From a phage, in sequence record PZ171033.1: a stretch of 64,000 nt of DNA. One strand, written 5' to 3'. The position numbers were made by a program, and so were the translations under genes. Shown here in pieces: positions 6,958-62,987 of the stretch. Each line of letters begins with the position of its first letter. Within the stretch, counting starts at the first letter, position 1. The notes under the pieces are model-generated. The model worked only from the letters and a program-made list of their open reading frames with translations, was not told where the DNA came from and did no database searches.

Positions 6958-7710
6958 ATGTCCGAAGTAATTCCCAATGATATGAACACTCAGCTAATCC
7001 TGATTGCAGGATTCTCAGCGAGTGGTAAATCAGCATCACTGCGTAACATCAGGAACCAGGAACGCTGGCTCTATCTGAACACCGAAGCAGGTAAACGTCT
7101 GCCTTTCCGTAACAAGTTCAATACTTACAACATCGAAGACCCTTATCAAATCTGGGAAGCATTTGATGTTGCATCTCCTAGTGGAGAAATGGCAGATGAT
7201 GTTGATGGTATCATTATTGACTCAGCAACCTTTATGATGGATATGCTGGAATCCCAGTACGTGTTGCCATCTGCAAACACGCAGAAGGCATGGGGAGATT
7301 TTGCACAGTTCTTTAAGATACTGCTGCAACAGAAAGTCGTTAAGTTTGGTAAGCCAGTAATTATTACTGCTCATGCTAAAGACGAACTTGATGAAGCTGC
7401 TGGTGTAATGAAAACATTCATCCCAGTGAAAGGCTCTCTGAAGAATAACGGGCTTGAAGCCTACTTCTCTACTGTGGTTTACGCAGAACGTGTAGACATT
7501 AAAGAGCTGGAGAAGTACGGAAACAAGATGTTAGAAATTACGGAAGAAGAACGTGACTTAGGATATAAGCACGTATTCCAGACCCGTCCAACCAAGAAGT
7601 CAGTAGGTAAACGACTTCGTTCCCCAATGGGTATGTTCGATAAGTCTGAGACTTATATCGACAACGATGCCCAGAAACTCTTAGACCACCTGGCTGAATA
7701 CTACGCTTAA
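6958..7710 (+). CDS. P-loop ATPase (RecA-like / Sak4-like core)
   Basis: Walker A LILIAGFSASGKS; hydrophobic strand then D (GIIIDS); good RBS GAGGAAAAATAATG. Confidence 0.5.
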   Translation: MSEVIPNDMNTQLILIAGFSASGKSASLRNIRNQERWLYLNTEAGKRLPFRNKFNTYNIEDPYQIWEAFDVASPSGEMADDVDGIIIDSATFMMDMLESQYVLPSANTQKAWGDFAQFFKILLQQKVVKFGKPVIITAHAKDELDEAAGVMKTFIPVKGSLKNNGLEAYFSTVVYAERVDIKELEKYGNKMLEITEEERDLGYKHVFQTRPTKKSVGKRLRSPMGMFDKSETYIDNDAQKLLDHLAEYYA

Positions 7711-7749
7711 GCGTTTGTCTGGTTGTTAATCACTTATTAGGAAAATCAT

Positions 7750-8553
7750 ATGTCATTGTTCAGTAATCTGAAAGAAAAAACCAAAAACGTTGAAGCTGCT
7801 AAAGACTCCCTGGGTGGGGGTGGTTTCGGTGCAAAAGAAACCGATATCTACACCGGTAATGTAAAAGTAGCTTACGTAGGTAAAGCTGACTCTGGTGCAG
7901 ACTGGATGCAGTTAATCATTGATGACTTGAAGAACTCTGATGGCGTACCTGCCGGTGAGTTCCGTGCACAGGTGTACTTCACTTCTGGTAATGCTAAAGG
8001 CAACAAGCCGACTTACGAGAAGAACGGTAAAGAATACTTCCTGCCTGGCTACACTGTCATTAATGACATGATGCTGATGGCTACTGGTACTGAACTGCCT
8101 GAAGCAGACTTCGAAGAAAAGATTGTTAAAGTCTATGACTTCGATGCTAAAGCGGAAGTTAATAAATCAGTCATGGTTCCAGTTGATCTGTTAAACCAGA
8201 CTGTTACCTTCGCTCTGGAAAAAGTTCTGGAATCCAAGCAGGTTAAAGGCGACAACGGTTATGTTGACTCCGGTGAAACCCGTGAAGTAAACGAGATTCA
8301 GAAAGTGTTTCACCCGGAACTGCTGGTCACAGTCGTCGAGGCTCAGGAAGCAGAGAAGGCTGAAAAAGAACTGACCCCAGAACTGGCTGTATTCTATGCA
8401 GCATGGCTGGAAAAGAACAAAGGCAAGACTCGTGACAAGACCAAGAGTTCTGCCGGTGGTAATGGTAAAGGTGGCTTGCCTCCTAAACCAGGTGCAGGTG
8501 CTGGCACGGGTACTGCTCCTGCTGGTGGTAAATCACTGTTCGGTAAACGTTAA
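7750..8553 (+). CDS. single-stranded DNA-binding protein-like
   Basis: 267 aa, size and position match N4 SSB; Gly-rich N- and C-terminal tails; call by synteny, not by motif. Confidence 0.4.
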   Translation: MSLFSNLKEKTKNVEAAKDSLGGGGFGAKETDIYTGNVKVAYVGKADSGADWMQLIIDDLKNSDGVPAGEFRAQVYFTSGNAKGNKPTYEKNGKEYFLPGYTVINDMMLMATGTELPEADFEEKIVKVYDFDAKAEVNKSVMVPVDLLNQTVTFALEKVLESKQVKGDNGYVDSGETREVNEIQKVFHPELLVTVVEAQEAEKAEKELTPELAVFYAAWLEKNKGKTRDKTKSSAGGNGKGGLPPKPGAGAGTGTAPAGGKSLFGKR

Positions 8554-9561: not shown

Positions 9562-10282
9562 TCTGGTAGGTGGCTCAGAAGCTGCTGCTATTTGTGGTAG
9601 TGTTCGTAATTCTGATGCTATTGCTTATCAGGATTCTGGACGTGTCGGCTCCATACATAGCATTTATCATCACTGTACTTATACTTTGGAAACTCAGTGA
9701 TAAAAACGGTGGTGACAAGCCGCCAGAGTAACAACAACAACCGAACCAGTGGACTTTAATACTCTCCGAAGTCCACAGGTTCAATCTAAACTAAGCGGAA
9801 AAGTTAGCTTTTTCTTGGGTGTAGAACCTGTTGAAGGAAACAAAGAATTTCACATTGAATAGTTAATATCGTAAAGGGTTCTGTTAGAATCCTTTGAGAT
9901 AGGAACTCCTATCATAACTATTCTTAACTTAATCTTTGCCGTATGGCACTGACGCTAGGGGTGGCCCCCCATCCGTCAGGTAGACTATTTTAAGAATGGG
10001 TTATCACAGCAAATGTAAAGCAACATTCGGGTTAATCAATGGCCTCTCCCTATAGGGGCCATTTCTGAATCTTAGGCTATATCCCAAAGGTTAGTATCTT
10101 TGGGATAAGGCTTCAGATCTCTTATCAACTAACGCTCATGTTGAGCATTCTACTCACACAAGCCCCTATATGGGCTGGGTTAAATGTCGGATAGCATAGC
10201 TACCTACAGCATCGAGATGTTAGGTCTTACATGTAATATAGGGTATAAAGGGAGGACTCGTCCCCTCCCTCCTATTATAATG

Positions 10283-10352
10283 GTCGGGGTAGCACGTAGG
10301 CATGTGCGGATGGTCGCTACTTCCCTCGCTGGTTCGAATCCAGCCCCCGACT
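10283..10352 (+). tRNA. tRNA-like gene (possible pseudo-tRNA)
   Basis: 7-bp acceptor GTCGGGG/CCCCGAC, U8A9, D-arm GCAC-GTAGGCAT-GTGC, T-arm GCTGG-TTCGAAT-CCAGC; anticodon arm imperfect by eye. Confidence 0.4.
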
Positions 10353-10903
10353 TACTGACATCCTATCAATGAGTACATTAGGCTAACGTGCGGAGGTTTA
10401 CACTGTAGCCGGTGTAGGTGGAGAAGACGGCAGGGTAGCTACCTGTGCTTAGTGTACTCTTTGATAGTTTTCGTAAGCGATTATGCGGTTTTTTAGAAAC
10501 GAACCAATAACATAAATGCAAACGATGATGTTGTTCTGATGGCGGCGTAATAGCCTGTAAGTCAGCAAGGTCTTCCGACTCCTTGTAAGCAAATTCGGCG
10601 CAGTGGCCCGCTGTGATTAATAATGGGCACACAACAGGTAAGAGCATTTAGGCTACTGAGAAATCATCCGAGGCAATCAGACCTATCTTCTGTTAAGTGC
10701 TCTTTCCGTTGTGGTGAATGCGCAGGCTGATGCGCAGTGGGACGTGGCTGACTCACGAGGATGGCTCAAGCGAATAAGCAAGCTCGACGCCGCCGAATAA
10801 GCGCCTTATGCCGGAGATCAGCACCGGCCACCACAACAAGTCCAGACGATATCTGAGTGACTATAAAAACAGATGGAGCCAGGTGGAATCCCTGGCAACT
10901 AAT

Positions 10904-11732: not shown

Positions 11733-11808
11733 TACCCGGTAGGCTTAGTGGTAAAGCCCCACTAGTAAACCAACTAGGACGCAGGTTCGAATCCTGTCCG
11801 GGTAGCCA
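11733..11808 (+). tRNA. tRNA-like gene with encoded CCA
   Basis: Acceptor TACCCGG/CCGGGTA, U8A9, D-arm GGCT-TAGTGGTAA-AGCC, T-arm GCAGG-TTCGAAT-CCTGT, G then CCA; anticodon arm atypical (6-nt loop by eye). Confidence 0.5.
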
Positions 11809-11813
11809 TTTAT

Positions 11814-11898
11814 GCCCACTTAGCTCAGTGGTAGAGCGCAGGAAAGCTTCGAGAGAACAAGGTGTCTGTGGTCACTGGTTCAAATCCAGTAGTGGGTA
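11814..11898 (+). tRNA. tRNA-like gene, long-arm (class II-like) length
   Basis: Canonical D-arm GCTCAGTGGTAGAGC, T-arm ACTGG-TTCAAAT-CCAGT, acceptor GCCCACT/AGTGGGT; 36-nt anticodon/variable region does not fold canonically by eye. Confidence 0.45.
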
Positions 11899-13417: not shown

Positions 13418-13448
13418 AAGCCCCTCATTTGAGGGGCTTTTTTATTTT
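13418..13448. terminator. bidirectional terminator between convergent genes
   Basis: AAGCCCCTC-ATTT-GAGGGGCTT then TTTTTATTTT; A-rich on the other side. Confidence 0.7.
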
Positions 13449-16400
13449 AGTTTATCAGGTTCATCCAAGGGTTCAGGTTGTGAGCACGTAAGCCTTGACC
13501 GAAACCGAAGGAGTAACCAAGATTGCCCTGTGCAGCAATACTAAAGATGTTGTCCTGAATAGGCAGGCCAACGTTACCAAACATGGTAGGGGTTGGGGCC
13601 AACATAGCCATAGCAGCATGAACTGGGTTATTACGAATCATGGACACTGCAACTTTTGCAGAACGAATCTTAAAGTTGTAGAACCACATCAGACCAACAC
13701 TTTCCATATACCCACGGAAACGACCTGGCAGACGATCATAGTTAATAAACTCTTCCGTTACACGTCCTAGTGCTTCTTCGCGAGTCTTACCTTTACGCTG
13801 AGTTAATTCATCATAGATGATTGCTTTAGCAATAAAGTCAGAGTACTCAACCGTCTTCTGGATACCCTGGAACAAAGCAGTATCCTTAGTGATAAGTGCA
13901 TAACGACCAGCATTACGTACAGACTTAGGCAGCTTATCAGCCAACTTATCCATGTACTCGTGAAGTTTACCTTCAGTAATCAGGATGTCGTCACGACCAA
14001 TACCAGCGTCTGCAATTGAAGAGAACTCACCTGCTTCTAACAGGGGCCAGATACTCAAACGCTTATGACTATCAGAGATGGACTGAATCTCAGCCTTAAG
14101 TTTACGAATCTGGTTCGGGTTAGTAGCTGCACGTAATTCTGCTTCTGCATCTACCTGACGCAGACGAGATTTCAGATACTGGTTAATCTCAGCAGTTTTC
14201 TGTGGAATGCTCTTAGCAATGTTCTTAACAGGTACACCACGAGCAACCATCTGGTAAAGGTTAGCCAGGAAGTTAACAGCAGGTACGACTACTGACTTAA
14301 CTACAATCAGGGTCTTAGCTTCTTTAACTAAATTCTGAACCAGGTTCTCACCACCCATTACGTATTTATAGGCACGGTTACCGAAGACACCCAACATAGC
14401 TTTCTTGAAGGTATCCAGTGTTTCTTGGGACCAACGAGAGTTACCAGACCAGGCATCACCAACAGAAGCTGCACGATAGCCGAGAGCATCATTGAGCATG
14501 TCACGACGTACCCACAGCTCACCAGGACCAAACAGACTTTCTGCTTTCTGACGTGTTTCACTATTCATCAGCTTAAGTGCATCGGCAGTTACTGGGTCCA
14601 GTTTAGAACCAAGAAGGTTAACGTACTGGGACTTATTAGAAGCAGACATCTTAATGTCGTTCTCATACATGCTATGCAGGTTCTCAATTAGCATATCGTT
14701 GAAACGCTGAGCCTTAGCCTCTTCTACCTGACGACCACGCCATACACCGATTGCACGAGCAAGATGGTTCTCACCCTCAATGTGCTTCAGCATGTTAGGG
14801 TCAATGGATTGCTCATAAGCAACCACATTACCATTGGCATCATATACAGGCAGAAGTGGTTCATTACCACGTTCACCACGAGCCAGTGCTTTAGTGATAC
14901 GATCTACAGAAGGCTTGTCAGTAATACGACCAGCTACCATGGTTCCCATAGTAAAGCCTGTACCAAGGTCCACACCACCAGCAGTATTGCGAACGTTCTG
15001 TAAGATACCCTGTGAGAATGGGGCCTGTGCCTGTACTGGTGCGAAGTAGTAGCTACGAGCAGGACCACGATTAGCAGAGCTACCCTGATATGTACCCAGT
15101 CGTACATAGGATTTCTCAATCAAATCAGCAAACTGACTATCTTCAGCAACAATCAGATTAACACCCTGTTTAGTCTCACTAGGGATATGCCCTTTGTACT
15201 GGTTCAGGGTTGCACGCATATCAGATTTGGCTTTAGCCATTTCATCTTTACGCTGACCAACCAGGTAAGAGGTGGCAAAGTCCATCCCATCAACTTCTGT
15301 CTGAGCCAGTGAAGATAACATCTCACGGTCGGACTTGTTCATTGCTTCCAGTGCATACAGGGTAATCAGTTTATCCAGTTGAGCTACATCTACAGTAGAG
15401 CGTGCAGCCTGACGTTCACCCAGCATACGGGAGATTGCAGTAGCATTACGCAGCAGGTTTTTACCGACAGTACCATTAATCATGTACTGAGCCAGTTGCT
15501 TAGATTTACGGTTAATCAGAGGCCAGTTACGACCAGCTTGTTTCTGCAAATCTGCTTCCAGCTTATTCACTTCACGGTCAACAATCTTCTGGTCAGTCAG
15601 TAAGTCACGGATTTCAGCCAGTGACATAGTGTCACGCAGGACAGCTAAATCTGTTTTACCCATACCAGTATGCATTACTTTCCACTCATCATTAGTCAGC
15701 TTACGGCTGAACTTAGATGCGATAGTAGTAGGCAGATGTTCACGGAACTGCTGACGGTCTGCCTGCACCTGTGCACGTACTGCTTTAATCAAATCGTATA
15801 CAGAAGCATTGCTCTTAGTACGACCGGTTAAGTCATTAACCAGGTCATGGAAAGGTTGCCATACCTTACCCTGGTTCATTGCAGCCATAACACCTTCAGC
15901 TACGATTGCACCATTCTTCTCTGTAGCAATAGCAGCTACCAGTTGTGCAGCATGAGCAGCACCTTTAACCAATGGATTATTGGTATTGGCTGCAACTTCA
16001 CGAGCACCTTCCAAAGCACGGGTAGATAGTACATCAATAGAATCCACCAGATACTGGTTAGCACGGTCAATAGCATTACCAGTAGGAGTAGCAACGGAAT
16101 CATAGAAGGATTCTGCATTAAGACTGGTCTGCATAATCGTCTGAGCCAGTGCATCCATACCTTCCTGTACGTTAGTAGCTTTAGTATCACCTGCTACACG
16201 AGCATTCAGACTAGCCATTGCAGCAGTACCAATGTTAGTCAGCATTGCATCAACGGTATTACCTGATTTCTTATCTGCTTTCATGACAGGAATGTCAGCC
16301 AGTACTTTACGTACTTCTTCACTTACCATTGCCAGACCAACAAAGGTAGGCAGTAAAGAAGATCGACCTTGTGCATCAAACTCAATGTTGTTAGCACCCA

Positions 16401-19400
16401 TGATGGTATCGAACTTCTGCTGTGCATAATAACGATCAGCAGGGTTAGTACTATCTGGGTCAGCCATAAATGCTTCGACGGTCAGATTCTTAGTAACATG
16501 CGTGTAGTATTCCTGTGCACGAGCCATAGCAGCAGGGTTAACAGCAGCCTCGGTAGCCAGTGCAGCAACAATATTGGTAAAGAGACGCTGTTCCTGCATA
16601 TTCATGGTGAAGCCATGAGCCTGAACATCACGAGTTACTTTAGTTGCATTTACTACTGCATCAGAGAACTTACCTTTGCGAATTACTTGCTGTACTGGTT
16701 CTGAACCAATGTAGTTAGTAATTAGCTTATCAAAGGTTTTCCCTAGCTCTTCCAGACGAGTATTTTCACCATACGCTTTGTTATGGAACAGAGTAGTATC
16801 TTTGGCTACAGCAGCAGTAGGAGCTTGCCCACGCATTACTACAGCAGAGTTAAACAGTAAGCCAGAGAACATATCTTCTGCATTAGCAGGAGCTTTCTTA
16901 CGTCCAAATACCAGACGTTTGATTGCTTCATATACAGCCTGAACCATAGTTTTAAGTGCAGTGGTTTTCTTCTGCTTACTAATCAGTTCTCGGTTGGTTA
17001 AACCCCAAGCCATGTACTCGTTCAGTGCAGCAGCTTTAGCCATTGCTGGTTCAATAAAGCCATTGGATAGGTGACCATTAATGGTATTCAGTGCATCAGC
17101 ATATGCTTCTCGTACTGCCGGAGATTCATCCCTAACATCCAGAGCACGGAACTGATTCATCAGGTCTTCGATGTTCTGGACTGCTTCATTAGGAGTGCCT
17201 TCATAGTGAGCCAGTACAGATTCAAAAGTAGAAGCATGTACCAATTCATGAACCAGAGTCTCTAAGGAAGGGGTAACTAAGTAGATGGTTTTATCTTCAA
17301 AGTTAGTCCAGCCGTATGCATTACCAGCTTCAGCAGCTTCAATATCTTCCGGTGCTGGGCGAGTAATGTTCTTCTCAATAGCATAGGCATCCAATTGAGC
17401 AGGTGTACCGTAAACAACTTTATAGTCTTTAGCAGCAAGGGATTTCTGTATTTCTTTCAATACTTCTTGCTGTTCAGGAGACATCTCTTTAGCCAGTTTA
17501 GTAATGGCAGTGTTAGACAGCAGACGTACACCAGACTTCAGTACACGACCAACCTGTTCCATCGCCGGTACTTCTTCCACTGGTTCTGCTTTAGTAGCAC
17601 GTACTGCTTCACGACGCTTATTTAATTCAGCATCAAACAGTTCGTTCAGCTTAGCTACTTGCTGGTCTACAGTAAGACCTTCCAGAGAGATTTTACCGTT
17701 GTTCACATAAGGAGCACCTACGGCAGCCATCTGGTCAACAGTGACTTGTACCTGGTCCATTACCTTGTGACGAATATCTACACCCAGAGCAATGTTACGC
17801 AGGTTACGTTCAATCTGCTCAGCACCGACACGTAACAGGTCATCAGTAGCACCCTCACGTTGGTCATACTCCAGAGCAGACTTAGCGATAGCCTGTTTGG
17901 TTTCATCAGACAGTTTACTGAAGTCTACGTTCTTCATGAACTTAGCGTAGGAGTCATAAACATTCTTGATAGGGTTACCCTGCCAGGAAGTATATACAGC
18001 CTCATTAGCTTTGCGACTTGCATCAGTGATGTCATTGATACCAATGTTCATACCATCAAAGATTTTCAGGGTATTCTTCGGAGCACCTTTCATAGTAGAA
18101 AGTGTCTGCATCATCATGCCATCACCAGTACCGATGGTCATAAATGGAATACCTGCAACACCTGCCTGTGAAGGAGCATAAATGCTCATTGGCACACGCA
18201 TACGGTCATCTAAGTTAGTAGCCAGTACTTGGTTAGCAACATCAGTATTCTCACTACCAGCAATGTAGAAAGTCTGTGAACCAGTCTCAATCATTGGAGC
18301 CAGTGAAGATAATGATTCCTGGATTTCATTCAGTTCTTTCTGCGTTAAGAAATCACCTTTCTTCCAGGTTGGGTCTTTTTCTTTTTCTGCCAGCTTAGCC
18401 TGTACTGCTTGCTGGAACATATCCTGCAATACCAGAGATTGAATCTGGGTAGCCTTCTGCAAGTTCTCGGTAGAGTGCATCAGACCTTCACCAACAGTAT
18501 TACGGATACCAGTACGCATTGGTTCAACGAACAGGTGGAGCATGTTCTCTTGTAAGTTCTTCAGGGCATTACCGGATACGGTAAATTTCTGGGGGTCTAA
18601 CTTACCAGTCAGAGCACCATCTACTTGCTGAATAGACAACTCACCTTTACGCATAACTGGAACATTACCAGTCAGTGCTTCCATAGAAGTAAGGAAAGTA
18701 TCCAACATAGCCTGAGCATCAGCTTCAGACGCAGCCTCCTTACCAAACATTGCCATAGCTGGGGAAATGCTAGGGTCAGCAGCTCGTGCTTGCAGAACGT
18801 CACTGAAGCGTTCGTAGATGGTATCAGTAATTGCACTGACCATCTTGCCAGCAATACCACGAGCACCAGAACCATAGATGGTAATGGTCAGTGGGTTTTT
18901 AGCAATACCACGTTTCAGGTCCAGAGTACCGTCTTCATTCAGGTTAAAGTCTTTAATGAACAAGTCCATTAACTTCTGGAGATGATTCATCTGGCTCATA
19001 ACTGGAACGTTGTTACGGTAAGTAGTACGTAACTCATTCAGTGCTTGTTGAAGACCATTGGTAGATGCTTCATACAAGTCAACATTATCGTCGATAGAAC
19101 AATGTTCGTTCATCGTTTTACCAGCACGACCAAAGAACAAACCACCTTTGGCAGTGTTCTTAATCCAGTCTGGAGTGAACTTACCACCAGTCATTAATAC
19201 CATTGCGTTGATTGGGCCGTTGGTTACACCATCAGCTTCAACGTACAGTGGAGTAGTAAAATTAGCACGGTCATCACTGTTCAGGTAACGGGCATATTCC
19301 ATCAGAGCCATGAGAGCTACGAAGGATTTATCACTACCCAGAGAGGTCTTCAGGATGTCTACTGCATCTGTCGGTAAGTGACCAGACTTATCAAACTCAA

Positions 19401-22400
19401 CCATCATATCAACAGCAGGTTTCAGTTTACCTTCCAGAGCTTTAGTTAACTCTTCAGACATAACTTCACGGGACATTTTATGTACCTTGATGCCTAATGC
19501 CTGAGCCAGACCTAACTGGAAGTCAGAGAACGCTTGGCTGTTTTCATTACTCAAGTCGATAGTAGAGAAGGTTGGTAGGATTGCTTCACGAACCAGCTTA
19601 CTGGATTGTGGGTTGTTCTTACCAAGCATCTGCATACGACCTACACGGGTCATGTTATAACCGTAGTGGATAGGTGTATCCAGACCATTCTCTTGTTCTC
19701 GTATCTGATTAATTACACCGAACAGAGAATCATATGCCATAGACACGGACAGGTTTTTACCTTCCAAAGATTTAGCAGTGTTCGCGTTCAGTAATTCTGG
19801 ATTAAGAGTACCAGCACCCATCAGTTCCAGAATGTTGTCACGCCCCAATGCTTCATAGAAGTTAACCATTGGCATATGTACACGGAACTCGGTAGCCTGT
19901 TCAGCTTTCAGTGCAGCCTTCTGTTCAGGGGTATTCTTAACAGCAGGGTTACGCAACTGAGTCTGAGCCACAGAAGGAATGTCATCACCAAAGTACATTT
20001 TCTCTTCTGGTTCTAAGAGGACAGCTTCCTCAATAGCAGTAGGGAATTTATTAATGGCATCATTGTCATCCAACTTCTCAATGGTATACAGACCAACAGT
20101 CTTATTGGAGTCTGGGTCAATCTCAGACACATCCAACATAGACTCTTTAACTTCACCCATCTCAATGAGAGAAGACAGAATCTCTGTAGCCATTGCCATT
20201 GGGATACCTTTGGTATAACCCAGCGGTGCATTAGGATTACGATTCAAACCCCAGTAGGATTCAATCTTCTGAGCCAGTGAGTTAGTAGCTTCAACCAGGG
20301 TCTGGGCATTCTCGAACTCAGCCAGAATACCTTCTGGTAACAGAGATGCTTCTACGCCTGTAATAGCAGCTACGTCTTTCATATCTTTAATGGCAGCATT
20401 CTGTGTAGTAGTCAGTCGCCATTGCAAACCAGCAAGCACAGCAGTCTCTAACAACTGGTCGTTGAACTTAAAGGTATCCCCATCTTGTTCAACTATATTC
20501 AGCAGTTTGCCACCTACCCAACGGTTAGCTTCAGTACCTTCTGCAAAACGTTTACCAACGTTCTTATTAGCAAGGAACTTAGCCAGACGTTCAGACAAAG
20601 TAGTCTTCAGAGTTTCACCAAAGTCCATTAAGTCCTGATAACGCTTAATCACATCACTAGTGAGAGCGTTATTTTCTTTTTGAGTGAATGCCTCAAAGCG
20701 AGCAGCAGAAGACAGTGCTTGCTTAATATCAGTCAAAGGAGATTCTGAACCAATGGTACGGGACTTAGGTTCTTCCGGTAAGGTAAATGCTTTCAGGAAC
20801 TGGTTCGGTGTCTTTTCATTGTTATAGACAGGGAACACTGTTTCCATTTCTGTTTTGGTTTCAGCTACTTCCTGGATGGTATCCTCATTCTTGAGAATAG
20901 CATCTACTGTTTCAGGCTTAGTAGTAGAGACTTCTTCTGTTTTTGGACTAGTCTCCTTAGTAGGAGCAGTCTTATTTTCTACCACAGGTTTAGCTTTAGG
21001 CTGTACAGTAGTAGTGTCCTCTTGCACTGGTGCAGGAGATTCATCAACCTGATTCACTGGTTCATTAGTCTGTTGAGACTGAGTGGCATCAAGACCACCT
21101 TGACGGAACTCTTTAACTACCTGGGCAGCAGGCTTGTTCAGACGTGAATCCAACGAGGTAACTTTCACATGAGAAACATTAAGCTCCGGGTAAGCCGTAG
21201 CAAGTGCATTAGCAATATCAGCTACGGTTTTGGCTTCCAGTCCTACTTGCTGGGCAAACTTAACAGACTTGGTATCGTAAGGATTGACACCGAGGCCAGT
21301 ACGACTACGTACCCATTCACGGGAAGGCGAGAGAGCCTGATAATGAACAGACTTATTCTTATCCGCATTCCCCGAAATCAGATGCTCATTCAACGCTCCG
21401 ACCTTATTCTGCATGTGCTGGGCGAACTTCATAAAGTCGCTCAGATAAGCGGAGGCCAAATCGAAGTTACCAGAGTTATACGCAGAACGAATGCGTTTCG
21501 CATGTTGCAACGCAGAGTACTGTCCTTCATTAGAACGAGACTCGTCGGTTTTAATCTGTTTACTAACAATGTCTTGAGGACGTAAGCCTAGTTCTTCTGC
21601 TTTAGCGTCGAACTCACGTGCACCCTGTAACAAGGCAGCAGCAGATTGCAGGGCAGCACGTTGACGATTCCCCAGTGTAATCTTACCTTCACTTGCGTGC
21701 TTCAGAACCATGTTCACTGAATCTGCATCCAGTACTTCTGGAGACACATCAGCAGCCATAGCAATGTTGTTTGCTTGGGCTTGATTAGCTTCTTCAGTAG
21801 CTTTCAGCTTACCTGCTTCAGCCTGTTCCTGAATCATGGAATGGATGGCACGGAATGCACGGAGTACTTTAGGGGTATTCTGTACGTTAGCCATCAAGCC
21901 AGAGAACTGGTCTACGATTGTAGCAGCAGGAGAACCTTGTTCCAGATTAGCCAGAGCACCTGGGTCACGGTTAATGAAGCTATCCATAGACATGATGTTG
22001 TCATACATCTGGATTGCAGCTTCCATTTGAACGTTAGGGTCTTCAGCAGTATTAACCAGGTCAGCCATCTTCTGAATAGCTTCAACACGGTTAGTGGAAC
22101 CAGAAACAGCTTCACGGATTGCCGGGTTAGCTTGTTCCAATTCTACCGGGTCAAACTTCATTGCCTGAGTTAAGTCAGCAGCATACTGGGTAGCAGCAGC
22201 TTTCTCTTCTGGAGTGATGTCCATTGCATCCACTGCTTCTTGTACAGTTGCCTGTGCTTGTTCTGCCTGAGCAGCAGCTTCCTGTGCAGCAGCATTAACC
22301 GTAGCATCAGCTACAGGGGATGCTTGTTCATTACGCTTAGCAACTTCTTCACCACGTTGAATCAGGATGTTAGTAAGAGGGGATGCAGCTTTTGCTAATG

Positions 22401-23817
22401 TTTTGCCAACCAGAGAAGCACCAGCCAGGGTAGTACGAAGAGCAGGGCCAGCAGAAGCACCAACTGCTTTAACAGTTGTACCAGGAGCTTGAGCAACCCC
22501 AGCACTACCGAATCCATAAAGTGCACCCAGACCTGCTTGCTCACCAACCCCTTTGAGGGTGTCACGGGATGCATCAACGTTTTCTTTGATTGCAGTATTC
22601 TGTGCGAACTGACCAAAGCCGGATTGAATACCTTCTTCGACTGTTTCACGTAGCATATTAGAACCAGCACCTGCCAGTGAACCTACCTTAAGTGGGTTAA
22701 GTTCAAAGCGAGATACCAGTGGACCGGTAGCAGCAGCAACTGGAGCAGTTAAGCCAGCAGCAATGATACCTGTTTCAGATGCAGTCTGACGTCGTGCTTC
22801 ATCAGGAGATAAACCATCAGCAATATGTTGCTGGTAAACAGGAGACTTACTTGCCAGTTCTTGGTGGGACATCTTCATGATTTCAGAAGCAGTCTGTTGG
22901 TATGCACCACCAGCTTCCATACCACCAATTGCAATAGCAGGTGCAGCAACACGACCAGCAGACAGTGCAACCTGTGCAGGACGTGAACCTAACCCAGCAG
23001 CTAAGGTAATACCTTTAACAGCTTTATCACCTCCTACCATTACTTTACCTAATGCAGATACACCACGGATAAGTGGACCACCAGTAAAGAGGGAACCAAC
23101 ACCTTCACTCAGTCCGTCGGAAGCAGCCATACCATTATCAAGTGTATTAGCAACAGAATCAAAAGCGTCACGACCAATACGAGACAGGGAGGCAACCAAA
23201 TCGCTCTCTCCGTTTTTTATATCTTGTTCATAGAGTTTCTGGTTCTTTTGGGCAGAAATCTGGTTCTGATTCTGAACAACTTTACGGGTAGCATTCAGTG
23301 CATCAGACTGTAGATTGTGTACACCTTCATTCAACCAATCCATCCCGGAAGCAATGGATGCCCCGGCATTATCATTGACCAGACCTGTGCCAAGAGCAGC
23401 AATGCCCCCAAGGGTATTAGCAACACCAAGACCAACACCAGAAAGAGTATCGCCAAATGCTTCTGCGTTAGTACGTTGTTTAGATAAGCCCTGACGTACA
23501 ACATCAGTAGCATTAGCTCGGCTATTAAGAATCTGTAAACCTTGCTCATTACCATACTTATTAATGATTTCTAAGGGAGAGGCTTGAGTGAAATCTGCCT
23601 GAAGTGAACCGGGTTCGAATGCACCGATTCCAAGATTACCTACTCGTCCAGTCTGGAGATTGTAAGCGTTCTCTGGGGTTAATTGGAAAGGGCTTTGCCC
23701 TTGTGCAGCTTGCTTCTGAGAGGTTGCAGTAGAGACATCGACTTGCTTAGCATTAGTGATGCTGTCTGCGAAACCTGCCAGACGGTCAAATGTTGACATA
23801 GCATGTTTCCTGTTCAA
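13447..23817 (-). CDS. virion-encapsidated RNA polymerase (N4 gp50-like vRNAP), 3456 aa
   Basis: Single 10.4-kb ORF; central T7-like motifs A (YVEADGVTNGPINAM) and B (KRGIAKNPLTITIYGSG); size matches N4 vRNAP. Confidence 0.9.
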   Translation of the reverse strand: MNRKHAMSTFDRLAGFADSITNAKQVDVSTATSQKQAAQGQSPFQLTPENAYNLQTGRVGNLGIGAFEPGSLQADFTQASPLEIINKYGNEQGLQILNSRANATDVVRQGLSKQRTNAEAFGDTLSGVGLGVANTLGGIAALGTGLVNDNAGASIASGMDWLNEGVHNLQSDALNATRKVVQNQNQISAQKNQKLYEQDIKNGESDLVASLSRIGRDAFDSVANTLDNGMAASDGLSEGVGSLFTGGPLIRGVSALGKVMVGGDKAVKGITLAAGLGSRPAQVALSAGRVAAPAIAIGGMEAGGAYQQTASEIMKMSHQELASKSPVYQQHIADGLSPDEARRQTASETGIIAAGLTAPVAAATGPLVSRFELNPLKVGSLAGAGSNMLRETVEEGIQSGFGQFAQNTAIKENVDASRDTLKGVGEQAGLGALYGFGSAGVAQAPGTTVKAVGASAGPALRTTLAGASLVGKTLAKAASPLTNILIQRGEEVAKRNEQASPVADATVNAAAQEAAAQAEQAQATVQEAVDAMDITPEEKAAATQYAADLTQAMKFDPVELEQANPAIREAVSGSTNRVEAIQKMADLVNTAEDPNVQMEAAIQMYDNIMSMDSFINRDPGALANLEQGSPAATIVDQFSGLMANVQNTPKVLRAFRAIHSMIQEQAEAGKLKATEEANQAQANNIAMAADVSPEVLDADSVNMVLKHASEGKITLGNRQRAALQSAAALLQGAREFDAKAEELGLRPQDIVSKQIKTDESRSNEGQYSALQHAKRIRSAYNSGNFDLASAYLSDFMKFAQHMQNKVGALNEHLISGNADKNKSVHYQALSPSREWVRSRTGLGVNPYDTKSVKFAQQVGLEAKTVADIANALATAYPELNVSHVKVTSLDSRLNKPAAQVVKEFRQGGLDATQSQQTNEPVNQVDESPAPVQEDTTTVQPKAKPVVENKTAPTKETSPKTEEVSTTKPETVDAILKNEDTIQEVAETKTEMETVFPVYNNEKTPNQFLKAFTLPEEPKSRTIGSESPLTDIKQALSSAARFEAFTQKENNALTSDVIKRYQDLMDFGETLKTTLSERLAKFLANKNVGKRFAEGTEANRWVGGKLLNIVEQDGDTFKFNDQLLETAVLAGLQWRLTTTQNAAIKDMKDVAAITGVEASLLPEGILAEFENAQTLVEATNSLAQKIESYWGLNRNPNAPLGYTKGIPMAMATEILSSLIEMGEVKESMLDVSEIDPDSNKTVGLYTIEKLDDNDAINKFPTAIEEAVLLEPEEKMYFGDDIPSVAQTQLRNPAVKNTPEQKAALKAEQATEFRVHMPMVNFYEALGRDNILELMGAGTLNPELLNANTAKSLEGKNLSVSMAYDSLFGVINQIREQENGLDTPIHYGYNMTRVGRMQMLGKNNPQSSKLVREAILPTFSTIDLSNENSQAFSDFQLGLAQALGIKVHKMSREVMSEELTKALEGKLKPAVDMMVEFDKSGHLPTDAVDILKTSLGSDKSFVALMALMEYARYLNSDDRANFTTPLYVEADGVTNGPINAMVLMTGGKFTPDWIKNTAKGGLFFGRAGKTMNEHCSIDDNVDLYEASTNGLQQALNELRTTYRNNVPVMSQMNHLQKLMDLFIKDFNLNEDGTLDLKRGIAKNPLTITIYGSGARGIAGKMVSAITDTIYERFSDVLQARAADPSISPAMAMFGKEAASEADAQAMLDTFLTSMEALTGNVPVMRKGELSIQQVDGALTGKLDPQKFTVSGNALKNLQENMLHLFVEPMRTGIRNTVGEGLMHSTENLQKATQIQSLVLQDMFQQAVQAKLAEKEKDPTWKKGDFLTQKELNEIQESLSSLAPMIETGSQTFYIAGSENTDVANQVLATNLDDRMRVPMSIYAPSQAGVAGIPFMTIGTGDGMMMQTLSTMKGAPKNTLKIFDGMNIGINDITDASRKANEAVYTSWQGNPIKNVYDSYAKFMKNVDFSKLSDETKQAIAKSALEYDQREGATDDLLRVGAEQIERNLRNIALGVDIRHKVMDQVQVTVDQMAAVGAPYVNNGKISLEGLTVDQQVAKLNELFDAELNKRREAVRATKAEPVEEVPAMEQVGRVLKSGVRLLSNTAITKLAKEMSPEQQEVLKEIQKSLAAKDYKVVYGTPAQLDAYAIEKNITRPAPEDIEAAEAGNAYGWTNFEDKTIYLVTPSLETLVHELVHASTFESVLAHYEGTPNEAVQNIEDLMNQFRALDVRDESPAVREAYADALNTINGHLSNGFIEPAMAKAAALNEYMAWGLTNRELISKQKKTTALKTMVQAVYEAIKRLVFGRKKAPANAEDMFSGLLFNSAVVMRGQAPTAAVAKDTTLFHNKAYGENTRLEELGKTFDKLITNYIGSEPVQQVIRKGKFSDAVVNATKVTRDVQAHGFTMNMQEQRLFTNIVAALATEAAVNPAAMARAQEYYTHVTKNLTVEAFMADPDSTNPADRYYAQQKFDTIMGANNIEFDAQGRSSLLPTFVGLAMVSEEVRKVLADIPVMKADKKSGNTVDAMLTNIGTAAMASLNARVAGDTKATNVQEGMDALAQTIMQTSLNAESFYDSVATPTGNAIDRANQYLVDSIDVLSTRALEGAREVAANTNNPLVKGAAHAAQLVAAIATEKNGAIVAEGVMAAMNQGKVWQPFHDLVNDLTGRTKSNASVYDLIKAVRAQVQADRQQFREHLPTTIASKFSRKLTNDEWKVMHTGMGKTDLAVLRDTMSLAEIRDLLTDQKIVDREVNKLEADLQKQAGRNWPLINRKSKQLAQYMINGTVGKNLLRNATAISRMLGERQAARSTVDVAQLDKLITLYALEAMNKSDREMLSSLAQTEVDGMDFATSYLVGQRKDEMAKAKSDMRATLNQYKGHIPSETKQGVNLIVAEDSQFADLIEKSYVRLGTYQGSSANRGPARSYYFAPVQAQAPFSQGILQNVRNTAGGVDLGTGFTMGTMVAGRITDKPSVDRITKALARGERGNEPLLPVYDANGNVVAYEQSIDPNMLKHIEGENHLARAIGVWRGRQVEEAKAQRFNDMLIENLHSMYENDIKMSASNKSQYVNLLGSKLDPVTADALKLMNSETRQKAESLFGPGELWVRRDMLNDALGYRAASVGDAWSGNSRWSQETLDTFKKAMLGVFGNRAYKYVMGGENLVQNLVKEAKTLIVVKSVVVPAVNFLANLYQMVARGVPVKNIAKSIPQKTAEINQYLKSRLRQVDAEAELRAATNPNQIRKLKAEIQSISDSHKRLSIWPLLEAGEFSSIADAGIGRDDILITEGKLHEYMDKLADKLPKSVRNAGRYALITKDTALFQGIQKTVEYSDFIAKAIIYDELTQRKGKTREEALGRVTEEFINYDRLPGRFRGYMESVGLMWFYNFKIRSAKVAVSMIRNNPVHAAMAMLAPTPTMFGNVGLPIQDNIFSIAAQGNLGYSFGFGQGLRAHNLNPWMNLIN

Positions 23818-59792: not shown

Positions 59793-60269
59793 ATGAACTG
59801 GAATGACTTGTTCACATACAGCAATGGTGCTCTTTACTGGAAAGTATCTAGAGGCCGTGCACTAGCTGGGGCTGTTGCCGGGAGTGTGGACAATAGTGGA
59901 TACGTTAGAGTCAAATGCTTCAAAAAGATGTACTTGGTTCACCGTATAATCTATGAAATGGAAATCGGCCCAATCCCTGATGGCTACCAGGTAGACCATA
60001 TTGACCATAACAGGTTAAATAACTACCCAAGTAACTTCCGTTTAGTCACCAATTTAGATAACTGCCGTAACCAAAAGAAAAGGATAACCAATTCTTCTGG
60101 TATTACAGGAGTCTATTGGCACTCCAGAGATGAAATATGGGCTGCTTCCATAAATGATAATGGTAAGCAAATTTATTTAGGAAAATTCCCTAGTAAAGAA
60201 GAAGCTGCTAAAGCCAGGAAAGAGGCTGAAAAGCTTATTGGTTACCATAAAAATCATGGAGCACCTTAA
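59793..60269 (+). CDS. HNH-AP2 homing endonuclease (free-standing)
   Basis: HNH motif YQVDHIDHNRLNNYPSNFRLVTNLDN; AP2 ITGVYWHSRDEIWAASINDNGKQIYLGKFPSKEEAAKA; ATG 59793 chosen inside track ORF 59559. Confidence 0.75.
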   Translation: MNWNDLFTYSNGALYWKVSRGRALAGAVAGSVDNSGYVRVKCFKKMYLVHRIIYEMEIGPIPDGYQVDHIDHNRLNNYPSNFRLVTNLDNCRNQKKRITNSSGITGVYWHSRDEIWAASINDNGKQIYLGKFPSKEEAAKARKEAEKLIGYHKNHGAP

Positions 60270-61444
60270 TGAATAACATACCTACACATACCCTTACTGA
60301 TGAACAGTTAATGAGGGAGTACGACAGGATCCAAGCTAACGCCTTTCTAGGCAAGTCTGCTGCCTTTTTTGGTTCATTGCTGTGTAGTCTTAAGTTCTCA
60401 TGGAAACGCGAGGACTGTCCCACTGCATGTACAGATGGGATAGAACTCCATTTCAATCCAGACTTCTTTATCTGGATGTGTCCTGATGCAAGAGAAACAG
60501 TACTAATGCACGAACTCTGGCATGTGGCATATCTGCATGGAATCCGTTGTGGAAGCCGTGACCCAGAAATCTGGAACCAGGCATGTGACCACTTCATTAA
60601 CCTTCAGTTAGAGGAAGATGGTTACAAGTTCACTGGTATCGACAAAGGCATTTGCAAAGACCCTCAATATAAAGGATGGGTCGAAGAAGACATCTACGAT
60701 GACCTGATGAAGAACCCTCAGAAAAGGCAGAAGCCGTCAGGGGGTGCTGGAGCAGGTCTTGCTGGCGACATGAAAGCTCCCTCTTCGGGGCAGTCCCAGG
60801 GTGCTGTTGTCAACAACGTAGTACGTGCAATGCAAAGTCAGAAGATGGCTGGTGGAACAATGCCCGGTAAGGGTGCTGGTCGTATGGAAGAGGTTATTAC
60901 CCAATTCCTTAAGCCAGTGGTTCCATGGCAGGAAGTCCTCATGAACTTCTTTACCGACATTGATGACACTCACTATACGTGGGCCAGACCTAACCGTCGT
61001 TACACTGACATCTATCTACCTTCACTGGAAGATGATGAAGGGCGTCTACGACACTTAGCTTACTTTGAGGATGTATCAGGTTCTATTAGTAGTGCTGACT
61101 CTCTGCGTTTTAACTCAGAGGTTGCCTACGTTAAGAGCCAGTTCAACCCTAAAAAGATGTCCTTAATTACCTTCGACGATATTATCCAAGAAGAGATGGA
61201 CATCACTGAAGAAGATACTTTTGAAGAGATTAGGATTACAGGTCGTGGTGGTACAAACCTTGAACCAGTACGAGAATGGATTATTAAGAATAAGCCAACC
61301 GCTGCAATCATATTCTCCGATATGTATGTTCGCCCAATGGAAGAATTGCCATTTGATATACCTATCATTTGGTGTGTTCTGAATAATCCTAATGCTACCG
61401 TACCTTTTGGGGAGGTAGTTCATATCCCTAAAGGAATGAAATAA
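60269..61444 (+). CDS. VWA-domain protein with HExxH metallopeptidase-like motif (MoxR partner)
   Basis: LMHELWHVAYLH; C-terminal VWA-like region; adjacent to AAA+ ATPase. Confidence 0.55.
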   Translation: MNNIPTHTLTDEQLMREYDRIQANAFLGKSAAFFGSLLCSLKFSWKREDCPTACTDGIELHFNPDFFIWMCPDARETVLMHELWHVAYLHGIRCGSRDPEIWNQACDHFINLQLEEDGYKFTGIDKGICKDPQYKGWVEEDIYDDLMKNPQKRQKPSGGAGAGLAGDMKAPSSGQSQGAVVNNVVRAMQSQKMAGGTMPGKGAGRMEEVITQFLKPVVPWQEVLMNFFTDIDDTHYTWARPNRRYTDIYLPSLEDDEGRLRHLAYFEDVSGSISSADSLRFNSEVAYVKSQFNPKKMSLITFDDIIQEEMDITEEDTFEEIRITGRGGTNLEPVREWIIKNKPTAAIIFSDMYVRPMEELPFDIPIIWCVLNNPNATVPFGEVVHIPKGMK

Positions 61445-61959: not shown

Positions 61960-62169
61960 ATGTCAGTATTTCAAGTAACTCATGCAACCTCAGATGTACG
62001 TGTAACCATTAATGCTGCAAATGTAGTAGGAGTGGAACAAATTCCACTGTCTGATTGTGCACGTATCACATTCGTAAATGATAGTACTATGGACACCAAA
62101 GAAACCTATCGTTCGGTACGTAATTACCTGAAGAAAGCTCTTGCTCCTGCAAGCAAAGATGCTGAGTAA
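61960..62169 (+). CDS. hypothetical protein
   Basis: 69-aa ORF followed by 9-bp-stem hairpin. Confidence 0.4.
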   Translation: MSVFQVTHATSDVRVTINAANVVGVEQIPLSDCARITFVNDSTMDTKETYRSVRNYLKKALAPASKDAE

Positions 62170-62242
62170 GTAACTGCCTAAATAGCCCAGCATAGTTGGG
62201 CTATTTGTGAAGAAACTAACTCAACCACTCAAAGGAATTATC

Positions 62243-62485
62243 ATGGAGTCTTTAGCCGTATTTTTCGCTGCATTCTTTATCCTGGTTGTATACCTTATCC
62301 CAACTATCATTGCTTTTGCACGAGGCCATGCCTCTAAGTGGGGTATTGGTGTACTCAATATCGTACTCGGATGGTCACTGGTATTCTGGGTAATTGCACT
62401 GATTTGGTCACTGTCCAACAAAGGTCAGAACCAGGTTACAAATGTAACTGTTGTTCAAACCAATGGTGGCAGTAAAGCAGAGTAA
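62243..62485 (+). CDS. superinfection-immunity-like membrane protein
   Basis: PTIIAFARGH...NIVLGWSLVFWVIALIWS resembles the Imm family signature; AAGGA RBS; terminator downstream. Confidence 0.5.
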   Translation: MESLAVFFAAFFILVVYLIPTIIAFARGHASKWGIGVLNIVLGWSLVFWVIALIWSLSNKGQNQVTNVTVVQTNGGSKAE

Positions 62486-62557
62486 CTAACCGTAATAGTC
62501 TCATGAGGCTATTACTGGAAGTTCCTTCCAGCTCATTGCTTATCCATCTCCTAATCC

Positions 62558-62587
62558 AAGCCCACCTAACCCGTGGGCTTTTTTAAT
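62558..62587 (+). terminator. rho-independent terminator
   Basis: AAGCCCAC-CTAACCC-GTGGGCTT then TTTTAATT. Confidence 0.65.
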
Positions 62588-62600
62588 TACAGGTACTCTT

Positions 62601-62987
62601 ATGTCAAACAGACAAAATGGTAAGTCTATCTTCCAGGGGATGGACTTTGGTAAGTTGGAACAAACTGCAATGCTTGCTGTTGGGAAGTCTCTTCATAACA
62701 CCGTAGAGCAGGGTGAGATTGACCCGGATATCTACGCAGCAATGCAAGTTCTTATTCAGAAAGGGTGGACTAGTAGAACACTCCGTGTCCAACCATATAT
62801 TCCCCCGGAACCCCATCTGAAATCTAAGGTAGAACGAATCATTGATGACTTCTGGGCTTACCCAGGCGAAGGACACATGTATCTGTATCTGGAACAGTTA
62901 CAGAAGAATCCAATCACTAAGGATTCATTCAAAGGTGGGAGCACTACTCACCATTACCCTTGGTATAGAAAAGGTAGCAAATACTAA
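62601..62987 (+). CDS. hypothetical protein
   Basis: 128-aa ORF after terminator. Confidence 0.45.
   Translation: MSNRQNGKSIFQGMDFGKLEQTAMLAVGKSLHNTVEQGEIDPDIYAAMQVLIQKGWTSRTLRVQPYIPPEPHLKSKVERIIDDFWAYPGEGHMYLYLEQLQKNPITKDSFKGGSTTHHYPWYRKGSKY

Follow-up and report, generated by a model that had tools for sequence, protein, structure and literature searches.

A short gene for a predicted membrane protein lies on the rightward strand near the end of the window, which is the whole stretch of 64,000 nucleotides of phage DNA analysed here (sequence record PZ171033.1). Its open reading frame starts with an ATG at 62243, the TAA ends at 62485 and the product is MESLAVFFAAFFILVVYLIPTIIAFARGHASKWGIGVLNIVLGWSLVFWVIALIWSLSNKGQNQVTNVTVVQTNGGSKAE. 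To its left lies a gp27-like gene whose stop codon occupies 62167-62169, and hairpins stand on both sides of the gene, which we call imm in the following (Table 1). To its right lies a gp28 homologue (62601-62987; 128 aa, PHROG 12812) that is present in most relatives; G7C has no gp28 homologue and there the terminator is directly followed by gp29 (G7C sequence compared, 1603-1727). The 2.1 kb around imm are 87-90% identical to Gamaleyavirus genomes (PE007, PD205, PD38, Bp4, IME11, ECBP1, St11Ph5 and G7C-like phages), which are N4-like podoviruses of E. coli and Shigella. The window phage is a Gamaleyavirus, a G7C-like N4-like podovirus (Schitoviridae, Enquatrovirinae).

Table 1. Features around imm; positions are those of the window unless residues are named
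Feature	Positions	Strand	Description	Basis
Upstream hairpin, after the gp27-like gene	62179-62207	+	13-pair stem, 3-nt loop	RNA fold
Shine-Dalgarno-like element	62231-62237	+	AAAGGAA, 6 nt 5' of the ATG	Read from sequence
imm-like gene	62243-62485	+	G7C gp27.1 orthologue, 80 aa	Pfam, PHROG, BLASTP, hydropathy, AlphaFold2 (AF2), dN/dS
Parts of the imm product	residues 1-80		TM1 ~3-26; basic turn RGHASK 27-32; TM2 ~33-58; polar N/Q/T/V-rich tail 59-80	
Hairpin A, directly after the imm stop	62492-62515	+	10-pair stem, 4-nt loop	RNA fold
Hairpin B	62517-62529	+	GGAAG-UUC-CUUCC; extendable as CTGGAAG/CTTCCAG, 62515-62531	RNA fold
Conserved unstructured pyrimidine-rich spacer	62530-62557	+	CUCAUUGCUUAUCCAUCUCCUAAUCC; nearly invariant in Gamaleyaviruses	
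Intrinsic-terminator-like stem-loop and U-run	62558-62586	+	AAGCCCAC-CUAACCC-GUGGGCUU	Terminator scan, RNA fold

Gene start and protein

At the position of the Shine-Dalgarno-like element the relatives keep AGGAA or AGGAG. A GTG start at 62207, which would give a 92-aa ORF, was rejected: the codon falls within the 3' arm of the upstream hairpin and is not kept in the relatives, where ECBP1 has GAG and the Moo19 codon is not in frame. Also rejected, as a by-product, was a 66-aa antisense ORF (62221-62421), because the substitutions track the plus-strand frame.

A Kyte-Doolittle profile of the product gave hydrophobic segments at about residues 3-26 and 35-57, and R27, H29 and K32, which lie between the two, are the sole positive charges in residues 1-59. 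The AlphaFold2 model, computed from an alignment of 37 homologues, has helices at residues 2-26 and 31-61 followed by a disordered tail at 62-80 (mean pLDDT 71.6). An earlier note on this DNA, made from the letters alone, had proposed a small membrane protein with two transmembrane helices, and both the hydropathy profile and the model bear this out; the motifs quoted there, PTIIAFARGH and GWSLVFWVIALIWS, are found in the product of 62243-62485. The size and layout, a small protein with two hydrophobic helices and a short basic R-G turn, fit the Imm type.

Further to the left, a free-standing endonuclease ORF (59808-60269 (+); HNH_3 67 bits, AP2 36 bits) lies directly 5' of the gp25-like metallopeptidase/VWA gene at 60269-61444 and looks like a homing-endonuclease insertion. 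HNH ORFs are found in the same neighbourhood in Bp4, where they split the gp25 homologue.

Membership of the Imm family

The product matches the Pfam family PF14373 (Imm_superinfect) with 61.4 bits against a gathering cutoff of 27.9 (E 7.3e-17), residues 16-57 aligning with positions 1-42 of the 42-position model and thus with the model in full. As a control, T4 Imm (sequence from NC_000866, 26373-26624) was run on the same family and scored 58.2 bits. Among the PHROG profiles the match was phrog_1039, 'immunity to superinfection' (E 4e-28). Direct BLASTP comparison with T4 Imm gave 30% identity and 54% positives over 63 aa (E 1e-10), in an alignment that is collinear from the last part of helix 1 to the tail; the two proteins have in common the P and I-A that precede the turn, its R-G and (G/N)W...W...WS in helix 2. 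On these sequence comparisons a match to PF14373 or PHROG 1039 by chance is ruled out. The resemblance to the Imm family that the earlier note had seen is thus confirmed, both by the Pfam search proposed there, which returned a full-length match above the cutoff, and by the alignment with T4 Imm.

A search of 5.8 billion clustered proteins gave 78 relatives, and PF14373 was found in all 78; the long contigs among them all measure about 70-74 kb, as an N4-like genome does. The nearest phage homologues outside the N4-like group are those of Acinetobacter AP22-like myoviruses (63% over the core), T4-like Merlin/Mineola-type phages (54%) and Jersey-like Salmonella siphoviruses (48%). The family is spread over myo-, sipho- and podoviruses. 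A sequence search of the PDB returned no solved relative, its best hit being a chance match to a cation exchanger (E 1.1), and searches of the protein with NCBIfam and PADLOC gave nothing significant. Foldseek, run with the AlphaFold2 model against the BFVD viral structures, gave nothing at E <= 0.001, a result that is uninformative because a two-helix hairpin is too simple for a fold search. A literature search on PF14373 by name gave no match.

Orthologues, selection and variation

An imm orthologue occupies the identical slot in all 15 relatives examined (G7C, Bp4, IME11, ECBP1, EC1-UPM, HK2, St11Ph5, PhAPEC5, PhAPEC7, SP5M, pSb-1, PD205, PE007, UE-S5a and Moo19), where the order is dCTP deaminase, gp27 homologue, imm, gp28/gp29 homologues and ThyX. 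The orthologue is annotated in G7C, Bp4, IME11, PhAPEC5, PhAPEC7, SP5M, EC1-UPM and Moo19, usually as 'gp27.1, immunity to superinfection', 'putative membrane immunity protein' or similar, and the notes in the G7C and Bp4 records cite similarity to Imm of the T4-like phage JS98. The gene is therefore already known: it is a clear member of a curated family, and its orthologues are annotated in G7C and many Gamaleyaviruses.

Pairwise Nei-Gojobori estimates against the 15 orthologues (dS 0.2-1.3) gave a dN/dS of 0.12-0.23 for codons 1-61 and of 0.05-0.18 for the core codons 15-61, and imm is therefore a functional gene under purifying selection. Across 37 homologues 21 columns are invariant, including P20, R27, H29, K32, W33, G43, W49 and W55, and in the same 37 sequences the core, residues Y17-G61, hardly varies. 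Variation is seen in the first half of helix 1, where the window has AVFFAAFFILVV against the common AAILVMLFVLAV; the window version is otherwise found only in a few metagenomic sequences (P0001-P0003 and P0015).

The C-terminal tail (window 62420-62482 (+), compared with L001 3524-3620) is dimorphic across the genus, with QNQVTNVTVVQTNGGSKAE, the shorter form, in the window and QSQTTIVNVGSGNQYNVSQTSQSDK as the other form. A frameshift removes the tail from the Bp4 allele, although traces of its codons lie 3' of the stop; the tail may therefore be dispensable. In PGN829.1 there is a split into two ORFs. For both Bp4 and PGN829.1, either the tail is dispensable or the records contain sequencing errors.

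Hairpins and terminator around the gene

The upstream hairpin is followed by GUGAAG and thus by no clean U-run, and the terminator scan left it uncalled. It is kept in 15 of 15 relatives, with a G-U wobble in SP5M and pair-preserving changes in Moo19 (CCCTGCA...TGCAGGG), and the G7C record labels it stem_loop. Its likely role is that of a leaky terminator or of a hairpin that stabilises the RNA.

Downstream of the gene, hairpin A occurs in three unrelated sequence versions among the Gamaleyaviruses. Every one of these folds and 6 pairs are altered on both sides, which is good evidence that the structure matters; hairpin A may serve RNA stability or processing, or may be a site of recombination. 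Hairpin B has an almost invariant stem and a variable loop. The spacer that follows contains CUCCU, which is complementary to a Shine-Dalgarno sequence. Together with the flanking hairpins and the terminator, the spacer has the look of a 3'-UTR-derived small RNA; an Rfam search of 62100-62700 gave sub-threshold chance matches only (Trp leader, 18 bits against 41; SpF51, 19 against 50), and the 3' hairpins belong to no RNA family described there.

The last of these elements has a stem of 8 pairs, 5 of them G-C (AAGCCCAC/GTGGGCTT, 62558-62580), with a 7-nt loop, and is followed by TTTTTT. A G+C-rich stem-loop with a U-run, the hallmark by which an intrinsic terminator is predicted, is thus found here, 15 nt 5' of the ATG of the next gene at 62601. 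The hairpin is part of the minimum-free-energy fold of the 118-nt 3' region (z = -5.0 against shuffled sequences), and neither its stem nor its T-run varies among 16 relatives and N4. Since the terminator stem and hairpin B never vary, covariation says nothing on either. The records of PhAPEC5, PhAPEC7 and SP5M also annotate a downstream terminator. It looks as if the transcript carrying imm would end at this stem-loop.

The same boundary in N4

N4 has gp27, a spacer of 113 nt and gp28, with no gene in between, and no Imm was found in the whole N4 genome (no tblastn or profile match better than E 1, where the window as positive control gave 1e-43 with the same profile). The N4 spacer aligns with the 3' region of the window over a hairpin, GGAA(A/G)TTCC, CATTGCTTA and GCCCAC...GTGGGCTTTTTTAATTA. 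The pyrimidine-rich spacer is thus partly conserved in N4, its CATTGCTTA being common to both, and the N4 hairpin stands at the place equivalent to hairpin A. In the window and its relatives the upstream hairpin is a second one of like sequence, ahead of the gene.

Because N4 is without imm yet carries the same gp27/gp28 terminator, the terminator predates the gene, and it looks to have been inherited from the ancestral gp27/gp28 boundary rather than acquired with imm. The earlier note had given the gene a terminator of its own: the stem-loop and T-run are indeed there, but N4 has the same terminator without the gene. The simplest reading of the alignment is that imm was inserted into an older boundary made up of a hairpin and a terminator, the hairpin having been duplicated or replaced on either side of the gene, and imm appears to behave like a small accessory ('moron-like') cassette. 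What our analysis adds to the known gene is the inherited terminator, the insertion relative to N4 and the structure of hairpin A, which is kept through sequence replacement.

Expression context

On the rightward strand imm stands among genes of nucleotide metabolism and replication, with the dCTP deaminase homologue to one side and the ThyX homologue to the other. This block corresponds to the rightward block of N4 with RNAPII, the replication genes and rIIA/B, and by this correspondence it would be the region that the N4 RNAPII transcribes before the late genes. In N4 the early and middle transcripts run rightward and the late ones leftward (PMC4496689), and the middle promoters are described in a review only as AT-rich, without a usable consensus. 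Our scan found no sigma-70-like promoter on the plus strand, and neither an 18-mer 5' of the gene nor an AT-rich stretch 3' of the terminator recurs in the window. As no promoter was found and the upstream hairpin is neither followed by a clean U-run nor called as a terminator, it seems likely that imm is expressed by read-through from the gp24-gp27 genes.

Other features of the window were noted in passing. tRNA genes lie at 10282-10353, 11733-11808 and 11814-11898 (+), with the replication block on one side and the late genes on the other; ARAGORN gives a tRNA-Ala (CGC) and a second tRNA whose anticodon loop is odd, Rfam gives tRNAs at 11733-11805 and 11814-11898, and the two programs disagree on which are real. 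The virion RNA polymerase ORF is at 13447-23817 (-) and encodes 3456 aa. The window is circularly permuted with respect to PE007, where the imm region lies at ~13-15 kb as against 62 kb here, so that genome ends or an assembly junction must lie inside the window, at roughly ~48 kb.

Proposed function and its alternatives

We propose, with a probability of about 0.6, that imm is the gene of an Imm-type superinfection immunity protein in a Gamaleyavirus. Its exclusion activity, in the earlier note a possible block of DNA entry by related phages, we infer from T4 only, by homology. According to the RefSeq note for T4, Imm 'mediates a membrane change such that the DNA of superinfecting phage is left in the periplasm to be degraded'. 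It is reported to be a plasma-membrane protein that acts with Sp, the periplasmic Spackle (PMC6832632; PMC7677548), and its topology is called 'unusual' in the title of Lu et al. 1993, as cited in PMC6832632. No experiment on an Imm of an N4-like phage turned up in our literature search. Homology and the two-helix architecture suggest that the window protein would form a helical hairpin in the inner membrane. Its basic RGHASK turn would then be cytoplasmic and the short N-terminus and the polar tail periplasmic by the positive-inside rule, a topology predicted from the charge distribution only. In this position the protein may change a step at the inner membrane on which an incoming phage depends, in the manner of T4 Imm. 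A second phage adsorbing to the infected cell would then fail to bring its genome into the cytoplasm, and the cell would be spared membrane damage from repeated adsorption.

N4-like podoviruses have no contractile tail and are not known to have a gp5 lysozyme, their virion RNA polymerase is injected and their DNA delivery is unlike that of T4, and a T4-specific target may therefore be absent for them. The core in common with T4 Imm is a membrane segment of 42 residues with 30% identity. If Imm excludes phages, one possibility, which we hold to be doubtful, is that it acts on a generic inner-membrane or host step rather than on a T4-specific component, or else that it serves as a cross-family weapon against T-even competitors. 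That the 42-residue core is kept in myo-, sipho- and podoviruses suggests a target common to DNA entry at the inner membrane. Were a generic target or a cross-family action true, the target of Imm could be approached by comparing two very different phages.

Given the unlike delivery, and given that imm is missing from N4, which has lysis inhibition, two alternatives to exclusion of related genomes stand. A member of the Imm family could mainly protect the envelope of the infected cell and stabilise delayed lysis rather than exclude genomes, with fewer inner-membrane injuries from secondary adsorption and without premature lysis or lysis from without. N4 does show lysis inhibition on superinfection (bioRxiv 10.1101/2025.11.12.688109), and both Bp4 and N4 have rIIA/rIIB homologues a few kb further downstream. 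However, N4 is the N4-like phage with documented lysis inhibition and is itself without an Imm homologue, so that Imm is not required for lysis inhibition in this group, and envelope protection overlaps with exclusion rather than replacing it; as the main role we consider it unlikely. We think it quite unlikely that Imm was horizontally acquired and is aimed at other phages, that is at T-even-type or other coliphage competitors. Such an origin would agree with its nearest homologues outside the N4-like group being those of unrelated phages (AP22-like, Merlin/Mineola-type and Jersey-like), with the absence of imm from N4 and its position as an insertion, and with the known action of T4 Imm on T-even phages, but the presence of the family in myo-, sipho- and podoviruses fits generic self-exclusion equally, and a core of 42 residues is too short to root a transfer event.

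It is very improbable that we are looking at a small membrane protein unrelated to superinfection, for example a holin/antiholin-like regulator or a modulator of a host membrane protein, and that the Pfam name is misleading outside the T-even phages. T4 Imm is the sole characterised member of the family and is said to resemble a holin (PMC6832632), the common domain is a hydrophobic hairpin of just 42 residues, and PADLOC, NCBIfam and the PDB gave no independent functional support. Yet the lysis cassette of N4 (holin, endolysin and spanin) is in the late leftward region, far from the position of imm, and R27, H29, K32, W33, W49, W55, N59, K60 and G61 are conserved in the protein. This specific polar and aromatic conservation favours a specific interaction over a generic membrane anchor.

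For the superinfection immunity that we favour, there is also a modest practical side. G7C-like phages have been isolated for therapy and biocontrol, and a working exclusion gene could affect cocktails that combine them with related or T-even phages.

Comparison with known systems

Other phages also encode small envelope proteins that act against a second phage, at the entry of its DNA or earlier, among them SieA of P22, Llp of T5 and the lactococcal Sie2009. The likeness of these three to the window protein is by analogy, as their sequences are unrelated and they were absent from all our searches. Llp is described as an outer-membrane lipoprotein that blocks the receptor FhuA (PMC9586334). 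N4 itself has gp18 (7668-7982), annotated as 'superinfection exclusion, similar to P22 gp17', for which no homologue was found in the window at E <= 1; the sister genera thus carry different annotated exclusion-related genes, gp18 in N4 and Imm here.

The orthologues are G7C gp27.1, Bp4 orf62, IME11_45, PhAPEC7 gp28 and Moo19 gp41, of the genera Gamaleyavirus and Moovirus. Each follows the dCTP deaminase and gp27 homologues, as imm does here, and is flanked by hairpins and a terminator like those of the window; their core residues 15-61 are ~85-95% identical to the window.

The only relative for which exclusion activity has been demonstrated is T4 Imm (NP_049660, 83 aa), the founder of PF14373. 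T4 is a contractile-tailed myovirus that encodes the Spackle partner whereas the window phage is an N4-like podovirus, and TM1 of T4 Imm is six residues longer than that of the window protein. The two are nevertheless alike in size and in their two-helix layout, and the window gene, like that of T4, would be expressed from a non-late part of the genome. Both proteins have a P-x2-IA-x2-RG turn and a second helix with (G/N)W-x4-W-x5-WS, and both end in a polar tail with a short V/I-rich stretch, which in T4 is QVIIIRE and hints at a short strand-forming segment.
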